Source: a virus
Lineage: Duplodnaviria; Caudoviricetes
Length of the DNA: 64,000 nt
Reading direction: 5' to 3' (one strand)
IMG/VR virus record: IMGVR_UViG_3300005805_000082
Location: 4,826-68,825 of that record
Below, piece by piece: positions 35,836-40,805 of this stretch. The position numbers and the translations under genes are program-made. The notes under the pieces were generated by a model, which did not search any database, had not been told where the DNA came from, and saw nothing but the letters and a program-made list of their open reading frames with translations. Every line of letters starts with the position of its first letter. Position 1 is the stretch's first letter.

Positions 35836-35864
35836 AAAAACCCAGGTGTAGAAACACCCGGGGT
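35836..35864 (-). terminator. Intrinsic terminator after tRNA-Trp
   Basis: Minus strand ACCCCGGGTGT-TTCT-ACACCTGGG followed by TTTTT. Confidence 0.6.
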
Positions 35865-37238: not shown

Positions 37239-37281
37239 GAACTGCCACGGGACTCGAACCCGTGTACAACCATTGCAGTTC
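37239..37281 (-). ncRNA. tRNA minihelix (acceptor stem plus T arm only)
   Basis: GAACTGC-10 nt-CACGGG-TTCGAGT-CCCGTG-GCAGTTC, intergenic. Confidence 0.65.
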
Positions 37282-37644: not shown

Positions 37645-37980
37645 CTAGTTGAAGAGTGTTTTGGCTGTATCAAATGTGGCAAAACGTTGGTCATAGTTCG
37701 GGAGGTCATACTCAAAGCCGAATGCAGTGTCTATGTAGTCATCAACGCTAGAGAATGTATTGTATGAGTACTCAACATCTCCATGGTCATAATGGAAGGA
37801 AACTACATGACCGTTGGAAAGCCTCAAGAAGAGGTGATAGAACCCGCCTCCTGAACCATACCCTACAACCTCCTCTACATCGTTGTGAAGGTTGAGGTCA
37901 AGGATTTGAGGGTTGTACTCTGCCATAGTTTTGGTGAGTGACTGCTCATCTAGGAGAATAGAAAACTGATGCTTTGTCAT
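37645..37980 (-). CDS. Hypothetical acidic early protein
   Basis: ACAC leader; starts 19 nt after the hammerhead cut site. Confidence 0.65.
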   Translation of the reverse strand: MTKHQFSILLDEQSLTKTMAEYNPQILDLNLHNDVEEVVGYGSGGGFYHLFLRLSNGHVVSFHYDHGDVEYSYNTFSSVDDYIDTAFGFEYDLPNYDQRFATFDTAKTLFN

Positions 37981-37993
37981 TGTGTGTGTTATT

Positions 37994-38045
37994 GGTTAAG
38001 ACCTCCCGTAGGAGGTTTCGCCTAGTGAAGGCTCATCAGTTAACC
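37994..38045 (-). ncRNA. Type I hammerhead ribozyme
   Basis: GGUUAA-CUGAUGA-GCCU(UCACU)AGGC-GAAA-CCUCC(UACG)GGAGG-UC/UUAACC; complete core and three stems. Confidence 0.93.
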
Positions 38046-38239
38046 TTTGTGGACTCAATTAGGGAATAATACTTGTCATACAGTTCATTGAAAATATCTT
38101 GAGCCTCTTCGGTGTATTTTGCACCGCCATCGCATTCCTCCCAAATAACAATAGAGTCCTGCCATTTTTTTTGCAATTCGTAGTCTGCTAGTTCGGATGC
38201 CAATTCAACTGCGTTGATGGTTAGTTCATGTAAGTTCAT
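38036..38239 (-). CDS. 67-aa acidic early protein flanked by ribozymes
   Basis: MNLHELTINAVELASELADYEL...; ATG 38239 has an ACAC leader (track start 38272 lies in the twister). Confidence 0.7.
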   Translation of the reverse strand: MNLHELTINAVELASELADYELQKKWQDSIVIWEECDGGAKYTEEAQDIFNELYDKYYSLIESTKVN

Positions 38240-38259
38240 TGTGTGTGTGATTTGTGTGT

Positions 38260-38322
38260 AACCTCTCTGCATTCATAGAGACTTGAGACTCTCACCCCTG
38301 GACGGGCGTGGTTGCATTAGTT
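38260..38322 (-). ncRNA. Twister ribozyme (type P1, with P3)
   Basis: P1 AAC/GUU, UAA, P2 UGCA/UGCA, P3 CAC-CCC/GGG-GUG, P4 AGAG/CUCU with loop UCUCAAGU, pseudoknots AC:GU and CUC:GAG, catalytic GA. Confidence 0.88.
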
Positions 38323-38561
38323 TCTCACCCTTTAGCCTCACGACTACGCTGAAAACCTAAGTGATAGATCAAAGTAGGTTGCGAAGGGCGGGTTACTCGC
38401 ACATCCTAGAGGATGCCATGTCGTTTACTGATTGTGCCTACTCTCAAACGATTTACATCGTGTGCTTTTCTTCGTGTGTGGGTTGCCTGAGGGCAGAGCC
38501 GTTTATCACAAAGGTTCAACTAGACAATGTTGCTTTCACTCCGTATTTTCAAAGAACTGCA
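38323..38561 (-). ncRNA. Structured 5' leader RNA of early transcript with boxA-like element
   Basis: Nested stems; GTTCTTTGAAAA at 38546-38557. Confidence 0.55.
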
Positions 38562-38747
38562 ATAGCAATAACTAAAACAATAATATCGAGAGCTAAATTC
38601 TAGAGAAAATATTTAACCGCAAAATGTGGATTAAAATACAGCGACAAAAAACGGTAGACAAATCCTCTACAAACCAGTCATAACAACAACGAAAACGTTT
38701 TCGTGATTTTATGTAAAAATGTTTTTCAGTAGATATTGTGTAAATCT

Positions 38748-39371: not shown

Positions 39372-39804
39372 GGGTAAAGGGATATGCTTACTAATTGGGT
39401 TCAGTGGTCAACATATATATTGACAGAGGTTTGCATAGGTATTGAGGACGAAAGAGGGAAGGGGTGGCTGCTGTGGTTTAACACTCACACTCACGGAACT
39501 GCCCCGTTCCCCCGCATCCGATTGGCTCATAGGATTCCAATTTCCCGTTCATTGTCACATGGCTCAGTTCCCTTTTCGGTTGTCGGAATGATAAGTTGCT
39601 GTGGCTCAAGCGTTTTCGGTTTCTTGCTCATTTATGCTACATAAATTTTGTGTGACAATTATCGATTTTGGAATGGCCATTTTGACCCCCACCCACTCGC
39701 AAATCCGCAGTTCGCATCGGTCAGTCGCCCAGGGTCTTTCAGTATATTACCCCCACTTCTCGCCCACATACAACCCTCACAAATTTCCACGGCTTTCTGT
39801 GAGC

Positions 39805-40044
39805 TCATTGCGGGCTAACTTGGGCATTATCTGGCGCCTCGCCATTAGCTATCTTAATCCAGGATATCCTCTCTTCTAAGCACCTGTAATAGGTCACCAT
39901 GGCGCCATGCTGTATATTGATCATAGATATCTGGACTGTAGATATTTTAGATAATTGATCGCCATCTACTAATTGCTCTAGCTTTTTAATCTTCTTTAGT
40001 AGCTCATCTTTCTCCTTATGCAGTCTGTCGATGTACGTATCCAT
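39805..40044 (-). CDS. Small helical phage protein resembling the crAss001 gp48 family
   Basis: YIDRL..EKDEL..KI.KL...Q..M..Q..AM..Y...LEERI. Confidence 0.65.
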   Translation of the reverse strand: MDTYIDRLHKEKDELLKKIKKLEQLVDGDQLSKISTVQISMINIQHGAMVTYYRCLEERISWIKIANGEAPDNAQVSPQ

Positions 40045-40105
40045 AGTTTATCTCTTTTGGTTTTGGCGTAGTATATCACCGTTATTCTGGCGTTAATTAA
40101 ACTTG

Positions 40106-40248
40106 TAGAACAGGCAGGACTCGAACCTGCATGGTGGCTTTCCGAGAAGCGTCCTCCGATAACTCACGTTACCCCGACCACTATCCACCGCCTTGTTTAG
40201 CTGCGTCTACCACGACCGGGGACACCCCGATCCTTCCGCCACTGTTCT
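40106..40248 (-). ncRNA. Expanded tRNA-like RNA (Leu-type D arm, no canonical anticodon arm)
   Basis: AGAACAG/CTGTTCT acceptor, TGGCGGAA...TGGTAGACGC D arm with inserted hairpin, GCAGG-TTCGAGT-CCTGC T arm, A73; 143 nt. Confidence 0.7.
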
Positions 40249-40330
40249 ATGTGCCTGTCTTTCCAAGCTGTCAGATAAGTTCTCCAGCTTAATGGACTGG
40301 ATGCCATGTAGGGAGATTATCATTTCTCCG

Positions 40331-40414
40331 CAGAACAGAAGGGAGTCGAACCCTTGTAAGTAGTGCACTACCTATCTACATCGTAGACTGCGGACCACTT
40401 TCCGCAACTGTTCT
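40331..40414 (-). ncRNA. tRNA-like RNA with long variable arm and closed anticodon hairpin
   Basis: AGAACAG/CTGTTCT acceptor, GCGGA/TCCGC D stem, GTCTAC-GAT-GTAGAT, AGGTAG-TGCA-CTACTT, AAGGG-TTCGACT-CCCTT, G73; 84 nt. Confidence 0.7.
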
Positions 40415-40591
40415 ATGTCCCCACTTTCGTGGGCACTTCTGGATTTGCTCCTGAGTCTGCAAACTCACCTGTATAAGACCTACAAATGGGAGTCATACAG
40501 CGAAGATAAACGGCCAACTCTCTAAAATATTTTGTTATCATCAAATGTTCATAAGTTTCAAATCATAATAGATAGCTTCCTAAATTCGCCA

Positions 40592-40805
40592 TCCTGGTTC
40601 CACCTGCTAGGGTCGGGGTCCAGTCAAAACCCCAAGCTAGGTTTATCCGAGGACGGAATGTTTAAGCTGATAGCAGGAGCGACAGTGATCCACTCACTGA
40701 CCGAAAGGTAGCTGCGGTGACGGAGTACGAGGAACTCAGGAGCAGTTTAATCGAACAGGGCTTTCCTTTTAAGCGAAGCTGTGTTCTGAAATACTTCAGA
40801 ATCTT
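40592..40805 (+). ncRNA. Structured 5' leader RNA of late transcript
   Basis: Follows TAAATTCG (40581-40588); nested stems TCCTG.GTTCC/GGAAC.CAGGA, CCTGCTA/TAGCAGG, CAGTGA/TCACTG, ACC-GAAA-GGT. Confidence 0.55.

Follow-up and report, generated by a model that had tools for sequence, protein, structure and literature searches.

The stretch of DNA analyzed here (hereafter, the window) comprises 64 kb out of a 68.8-kb viral record of IMG/VR, the completeness of which is estimated at 62%. The record encodes a terminase, a portal protein and virion proteins, which identify it as the genome of a tailed dsDNA phage, along with a primase-helicase, an integrase and a ParB-like protein. A blastn search with this phage against the phage collection yielded no match. 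A search for sequencing runs that contain the locus turned up three DNA runs from a single lake-water metagenome study and no RNA run, and mapping of the DNA runs revealed zero variants or joints. A small protein of the crAss001_48 family and CA-rich leaders without a Shine-Dalgarno sequence hint at a host among Bacteroidota.

A 67-aa ORF (38239-38036), located at the head of a small-gene operon on the minus strand of this phage, is preceded by a twister ribozyme motif (38323-38259) and overlapped at its 3' end by a hammerhead ribozyme motif (38045-37994). The relevant features of the operon, with the predicted cleavage sites, are the following:

38324-38747, minus strand: untranslated leader upstream of the twister
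38259-38323, minus strand: type-P1 twister ribozyme (match to RF03160), predicted cut at U38319/A38318, after which the ribozyme body would remain part of the downstream product
38240-38258, minus strand: CA-rich leader of 19 nt that separates the twister from the ATG
38036-38239, minus strand: 67-aa ORF, with the ATG at 38239 and the UGA stop at 38038-38036, inside the CUGAUGA core of the hammerhead; a second in-frame UGA follows directly (tandem UGA UGA)
37994-38045, minus strand: type-I hammerhead ribozyme, predicted to cut after C38000 and to leave its ribozyme body attached to the upstream product
37981-37999, minus strand: leader of 19 nt (UUAACCAAUAACACACACA) in front of the ATG of the next gene, predicted to carry a 5'-OH after the hammerhead cut
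37645-37980, minus strand: the following ORF (111 aa), which would come first in the predicted downstream cleavage product
35956-35884, minus strand: tRNA-Trp (CCA), the last element of the small-gene operon
35841-35862, minus strand: terminator-like hairpin, 3' of the tRNA-Trp

Re-reading of the sequence confirmed, on the minus strand, all the coordinates given in a previous examination of this DNA that relied on the letters alone (hereafter, the sequence-only reading). Cleavage at the two predicted sites, U38319/A38318 and C38000/U37999, would yield an RNA that spans positions 38318-38000 and is 319 nt long. That this product would hold the 67-aa ORF, as the sequence-only reading had proposed, follows from the geometry of the two predicted ribozymes, and so does the proposed chemistry of its ends, a 5'-OH and a 2',3'-cyclic phosphate. 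P1-type twisters cut at their own 5' edge and type-I hammerheads at their own 3' edge, so that both ribozyme bodies would be kept on the 319-nt RNA. The twister cut would also free the leader 38324-38747, the minus strand of which contains no ORF of 40 aa or longer, as a fragment of its own, with the end ...AAACU carrying a 2',3'-cyclic phosphate. Leaders of the form ACACAC...ATG are found also in front of other genes of the operon. For the 111-aa ORF (37645-37980), no match to a Pfam or PHROG family was detected.

The sequence GGUUA is common to twister P1, in its 3' strand (GGUUAC, 38259-38264), and hammerhead stem I, in its 5' strand (GGUUAA, 38040-38045); both strands would be left unpaired after cleavage. 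Juxtaposition of the RNA ends via this common element was considered and ruled out: the two copies are identical rather than complementary and hence would not pair with each other.

The protein encoded by the 67-aa ORF has homologs in 74 clusters besides its own; the homologs are mostly 64-68 aa long, in agreement with the length and the start of this ORF, and 14 columns of the alignment are invariant. The AlphaFold2 model of the protein (pLDDT 89) consists of a helix, a beta-hairpin and another helix. Searches with this protein produced no Pfam or PHROG match and no PDB fold match below an E-value of 0.3, and there was no Atlas lead on its function above 0.82.

Several other elements are located in and around the operon. 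Between two of its genes lies a tRNA-like minihelix (37239-37281, minus strand), which combines a 7-bp acceptor-like stem, GAACUGC/GCAGUUC, with a T arm that has the loop GUUCGAGU. This minihelix could be a processing signal for RNase P or RNase Z and, together with the terminal tRNA-Trp, fits processing of the operon at multiple sites. A perfect 14-bp palindrome, CGAAAACGTTTTCG, is located at 38690-38703, at the start of the long leader and just downstream of an 89-aa ORF; it may be an operator or a part of a terminator, and the gene for a winged-helix protein (39371-39048) is found nearby. The adjacent segment of about 1.3 kb (39372-40716) contains a single convincing small gene, the crAss001_48-like ORF 40044-39805; within this segment, at 40100-40530, neither ARAGORN nor Rfam made any call. 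Scans for sigma-70 and Bacteroidota-type promoters gave matches at chance level only, such that the promoter was not located, and the frequency of the CTCTAGAAT motif was no better than chance.

The two ribozyme motifs

The twister was identified as a match to the type-P1 model RF03160 (38323-38259; 47.5 bits, E-value of 2e-7 for the whole window), which is below the gathering score of 67.2; with gathering thresholds, Rfam detects neither the twister nor the hammerhead in the window. The helices come in the P1-type order, with a P2 of 4 bp (UGCA/UGCA), a P4 of 3 bp (AGA/UCU) and a P3 of 6 bp with one bulged G, and the U|AA cleavage step sits at 38319|38318, next to P1. Both pseudoknots differ from the consensus in a compensatory manner: T1 is CUC:GAG vs the consensus CCC:GGG, and T2 is AC:GU vs the consensus GC:GC, so that the double pseudoknot formed by L4 with L1 and L2 is kept through double changes. 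A covariance model is unable to score pseudoknots and counts such compensated positions as mismatches. The low score of the window twister is accounted for by four deviations that make up two compensatory pseudoknot pairs and are invisible to the model as such.

Both these core deviations were seen again in other viral twisters. A pattern with the U:A variant of T1, run on viral contigs, matched 108 stretches; in the 34 distinct P1-type viral twisters with this variant, the T2 pair 12:46 is G:C in 19 cases, A:U in 14 and G:U in one, and is never unpaired. The 5' half of a twister is found upstream of 37 of the 74 distinct matches to the pattern with the paired T1 U:A, compared with one of the 39 distinct matches to the pattern with a mismatched T1 C:A. 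This covariation of T1 and T2 indicates that the window twister belongs to a natural variant subclass.

The hammerhead at the opposite end of the unit consists of stem I, GGUUAA (38045-38040) paired with UUAACC (37999-37994); the CUGAUGA box (38039-38033); stem II, GCCU/AGGC, followed by GAAA; and stem III, CCUCC/GGAGG, followed by U-C17 (38001-38000). The core elements CUGAUGA and GAAA as well as the cleavage triplet GUC are all exact. In both the minimum-energy and the centroid folds, the hammerhead is predicted to form exactly this three-way junction, closed at stems II and III and open at stem I (z-score of -3.2). A custom descriptor that covers all three hammerhead topologies, applied to both strands of the window, found one hammerhead only. 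The specificity of this descriptor was gauged with 100 shuffled windows, which produced two calls (about 0.02 false positives per window), and with 2.4 Mb of reversed control sequence, which produced none, compared with 200 calls in the real sequence. The Rfam scores of the window hammerhead are 24.5 for RAGATH-1-hammerhead (gathering score 56.3) and 15.2 for HH9 (gathering score 52), in both cases below the threshold. A 214-nt contig from the same lake sample matches positions 37992-38047, that is, the hammerhead only, with nine differences and unrelated flanks, which points to another member of the hammerhead family in the same community.

The sub-threshold scores of both motifs bring up the alternative that in vivo activity is absent or marginal for at least one of the two ribozymes, in which case no discrete 319-nt RNA would accumulate and the motifs would be decaying relics. 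The twister P1 is weak, with three contiguous pairs only, and the P4-P2 junction reads UGAA instead of the consensus UAAA; among the 34 surveyed viral twisters, this junction ends in GAA, as a result of the A-to-G change, in one only, and nearly all the others end in AAA. In the hammerhead, stem I is only 6 bp long and is open in the predicted folds, and the ribozyme overlaps translated sequence. Loop II is a 5-nt U-N-A-N-U sequence in the seven copies inspected, which also have the conserved 3' flank AAUAA, and no pairing partner or tertiary contact of loop II was identified in these copies. However, P1 is dispensable for cleavage by twister (PMC5408937), so that its short length in the window matters little; the two twister deviations that fall within highly conserved loops are exactly compensated; and the catalytic-core positions of the hammerhead are all intact. 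To judge from these motifs, the twister and the hammerhead are both very probably genuine, and comparison with the relatives of the hammerhead and of the flanked gene bears further on this alternative.

The hammerhead family and the orthologs of the flanked gene

A search of viral stretches with a pattern that combines stem I (GGUUWA/UWAACC) with the hammerhead core matched at least 119 loci. Rfam, run at E-values up to 1 over eight related viral loci, found no ribozymes, and it misses most of the hammerheads of this family, hence the use of the custom descriptor. When scored against RF03152, their best Rfam match, the relatives reach about 30-35 bits (24.5-34.9 with the window included, all below 56.3), which shows that this lineage of hammerheads is covered poorly by Rfam. 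The RAGATH-1 hammerheads of RF03152 resemble the window hammerhead in being of type I and in coming from phage-like contexts, but differ in stem I, which is ucuua/uaaga as opposed to GGUUAA/UUAACC, and their upstream hairpin is poorly matched.

Among the matches listed, the descriptor recognized 155 type-I copies in the 119 family loci, and in none of these loci were copies found on both strands. A single hammerhead is present in 66 of the family loci, and 37 contain two or more copies that delimit 63 hammerhead-hammerhead units, the median length of which is 426 nt (again, among the matches listed). The position of the hammerhead relative to the genes is stereotyped. Among the matches listed, 118 copies have an upstream ORF; its stop codon is a TAA within stem I for 37 copies and, as in the window, a UGA within CUGAUGA for 32, and for another 34 it precedes the hammerhead by 8-9 nt; altogether, it is located inside the hammerhead or within 9 nt from it in 104. 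The distance from the cut to the next ATG is 19-27 nt in the listed copies (median 23) and 19 nt in the window.

Two loci that encode homologs of the 67-aa protein, L123 and L124, contain two and three type-I hammerheads, respectively, at other gene boundaries, with stem I being either GGUUAA/UUAACC or the covarying GGUUUA/UAAACC. In the copies from L123, L124 and a third such locus, L270, stem I is the same, and pairing in stems II and III is maintained despite different sequences; this covariation of the stems among relatives supports the hammerhead predicted in the window. By its sequence features, the window hammerhead is a member of a stereotyped intercistronic phage module. It retains the stop position, the leader length and the stem I that are typical of the family, a stereotype that drift would erase, which argues against decay.

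The family is widespread among phages, with members in the window and at the loci L123, L124, L130-L248 and L250-L322, and is characterized by a nearly invariant stem I, the 5-nt U-N-A-N-U loop II and a conserved 3' flank, CCAAUAA, whereas stems II and III vary freely. Stem I might be conserved because it supplies stop codons in several reading frames, belongs to a conserved leader, or engages in a tertiary contact.

The overlap between stop codons and hammerheads invites a different interpretation, under which cleavage is regulatory or destabilizing: folding of the hammerhead would compete with terminating ribosomes, such that the cut reports translation of the first gene, and the 5'-OH products may be targets for decay. 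The stop codon placement in 104 of the 118 listed family copies is compatible with such a role, and glmS is a known case in which a 5'-OH product is degraded (PMC6765202). The tight packing of phage genes, however, explains the overlap of the stop codon with the hammerhead equally well, and we consider a regulatory or destabilizing function unlikely.

Orthologs of the 67-aa protein were found in 134 confirmed metagenome stretches, 80 of which were kept as loci that had been selected irrespective of ribozymes. The closest ortholog outside the protein's own cluster is 73% identical, and the closer homologs (67-73% identity) are located in tightly packed small-gene operons. The sequence-only reading had suggested that related phages be searched for ribozyme pairs around the ortholog; in this comparison, family hammerheads were present in 10 of the 80 loci, in every case on the strand of the gene, and a twister in none of the 80. 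Most orthologs lack a flanking ribozyme, so the bracket is not essential to the gene. The missing ribozymes are also what one would expect if the motifs were relics; considering this together with the intact hammerhead core, the compensated twister pseudoknots and the retained family stereotype, we regard inactivity or marginal activity of the ribozymes as improbable.

In L270, the hammerhead is located directly at the 3' end of the ortholog, as in the window. Upstream of this ortholog (L270:1740-1775), there is a sequence starting with UCUUAACCAAUAAAA that usually follows the cut in family hammerheads, with no intact hammerhead upstream; it may be the remnant of a hammerhead or, alternatively, a leader motif conserved in its own right.

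Ribozyme-flanked genes in other phages

The sequence-only reading considered two ribozyme classes around one phage gene to be unusual; published observations (PMC3088659, PMC6765202) and further instances found here contradict this view. Perreault et al. (2011; PMC3088659) described multiple prophage hammerheads that often flank single genes or short gene blocks, and such clustered hammerheads cleave both in vitro and in E. coli. These authors proposed that hammerheads convert long transcripts into single-gene mRNAs; they also raised the possibility of spliced or circular products but “were unable to detect either” (PMC3088659). Twister was recognized as a ribozyme through gene neighborhoods common with hammerheads, and the function of the thousands of twister and hammerhead ribozymes in bacteria and phages is described as still elusive (PMC6765202).

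In the 108 twister-bearing viral loci surveyed here, 15 hammerheads were found, all 15 on the strand of the twister. The succession of a twister, one gene and a hammerhead is present in two unrelated viral contigs, L085 and L038, where the flanked ORFs encode 97 aa and 306 aa, respectively. The combination of a twister with the hammerhead family described above was found, besides the window, in none of the 119 listed family loci. What is particular to the window is therefore narrower than the bracket as such, namely, the joint occurrence of a twister and this hammerhead family, the very small size of the unit, and the placement of both ribozyme bodies on the retained side of the cuts.

The window and the prophage clusters of Perreault et al. 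both feature several same-strand ribozymes that flank single genes or short blocks in phage DNA; in the window, unlike those clusters, the upstream ribozyme is a twister, the unit is only 319 nt long and both ribozyme bodies would be retained. Furthermore, the 2011 examples come from other bacteria and from hammerhead lineages other than that of the window. In the neighborhoods reported by Roth (2014) and Weinberg (2015), as related in PMC6765202, the two classes likewise occur close together and near phage genes; compared with those, the window presents an explicit one-gene bracket with defined ends and adds no functional evidence. The window locus is a further instance of the arrangement described in 2011, with no new mechanism.

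Fate of the predicted 319-nt RNA

We favor, with a probability of roughly 60%, the interpretation that the early polycistronic transcript is processed linearly by two genuine ribozymes to give a message for the first gene. From the sequence, we infer cleavage in vivo, along with the chemistry of the ends and effects on stability and expression. Cleavage would take place during or soon after transcription; the twister would remove the leader of about 420 nt, and the hammerhead cut would part the first gene from the downstream genes. The 319-nt RNA would then be a linear single-gene message, with the 5'-OH held in the compact twister fold and the 2',3'-cyclic phosphate in the hammerhead fold. 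Such folded and chemically non-standard ends should shield the RNA from end-dependent decay, and the protected ends should uncouple the RNA level of the first gene from that of the rest of the operon. The downstream RNA would begin with a 5'-OH and a short, unstructured leader of 19 nt.

Several features count against linear processing, namely, the twister score below the gathering threshold, the UGAA junction, and the hammerhead, with a 6-bp open stem I for which no contact with loop II was identified; in addition, ribosomes that terminate at the UGA in the core would unfold the hammerhead. The sequence-only reading had offered an excised and end-protected message as its fallback. This message is, in our assessment, the best reading of the locus. 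The protective effect of its ends is inferred, and certain bacteria degrade 5'-OH products preferentially, an example being the glmS product and RNase J1 (cited in PMC6765202).

The principal proposal of the sequence-only reading was a natural circular mRNA, in which a host RtcB-type ligase would join C38000 to A38318, and the circle would be translated. The predicted ends, a 5'-OH and a 2',3'-cyclic phosphate, are indeed those of an RtcB substrate. Native RtcB in E. coli circularizes engineered ribozyme-flanked mRNAs, which are then translated (PMC12628768), and, of 14 control genomes, 10 encode RtcB, among them that of Bacteroides thetaiotaomicron. As read from the sequence, a circle, once formed, would be re-cleaved poorly because the pairing partners of twister P1 and hammerhead stem I would not be restored. 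The phage itself, however, does not appear to provide the ligase: the absence of RtcB from the window, which the sequence-only reading had pointed out, extends to the entire 68.8-kb record (about 62% complete), where the RtcB, RNA_ligase and 2_5_RNA_ligase2 families are all missing.

The predicted structure of the 319-nt RNA does not favor ligation either. In both the minimum-energy and the centroid folds, the energy of which is ordinary (z-score of 0.30), the ends are unpaired with each other: pairing at the 5' end is local, hammerhead stem III takes up the 3' end, and no terminal helix is formed. Each end would be buried in the active site of its own ribozyme. The window resembles the Tornado RNAs (PMC12628768) in the flanking self-cleaving ribozymes, the 5'-OH and 2',3'-cyclic phosphate ends, and the complete ORF; the Tornado designs, however, discard the ribozymes, and the ends that are left are complementary and provide the ligase with a stem, whereas in the window, the reverse is the case, with the ribozymes kept on the product and the ends non-complementary. 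The clustered prophage hammerheads, furthermore, gave no detectable circular or spliced products (Perreault et al., PMC3088659). The tandem in-frame stops preclude rolling-circle translation, and the single hammerhead in 66 of the family loci (among the matches listed) suggests that the general role of the family is cutting rather than circle formation.

Circles of the retrozyme and viroid-like type, in which type-I hammerheads stay on the excised unit, resemble the phage family in this respect. Pairing of the 5' end with the hammerhead at the unit's own 3' end is the geometry of these circles. In the hammerhead-hammerhead units of the phage family, the shared stem I (GGUUWA/UWAACC) would allow a hammerhead to be re-formed from the two ends of the same unit, and by this analogy, such units may circularize. 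The unit in the window is led by a twister, so that this type of end pairing would be unavailable to it. The phage family also differs from retrozymes and viroid-like RNAs in that it resides in operons of DNA phages, with no reverse transcriptase or RNA replication. With its ends unpaired, lodged in separate ribozyme folds, and the ribozymes retained, the proposed circular mRNA lacks support in the sequence of the locus, and we consider it very unlikely.

The locus is a compact and well-defined example, in which a promoter-proximal leader, a single 67-aa gene and ribozymes of two classes come together, with a 319-nt product predicted. It is a convenient test case for asking whether phage ribozymes of this kind stabilize a message, insulate or uncouple parts of an operon, or yield a product that is ligated. 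At the level of the family, the regularities described here, namely, the stop codon in the hammerhead, the 5'-OH leader of 19-27 nt and the invariant stem I, translate into concrete hypotheses on the role of these hammerheads in phages.
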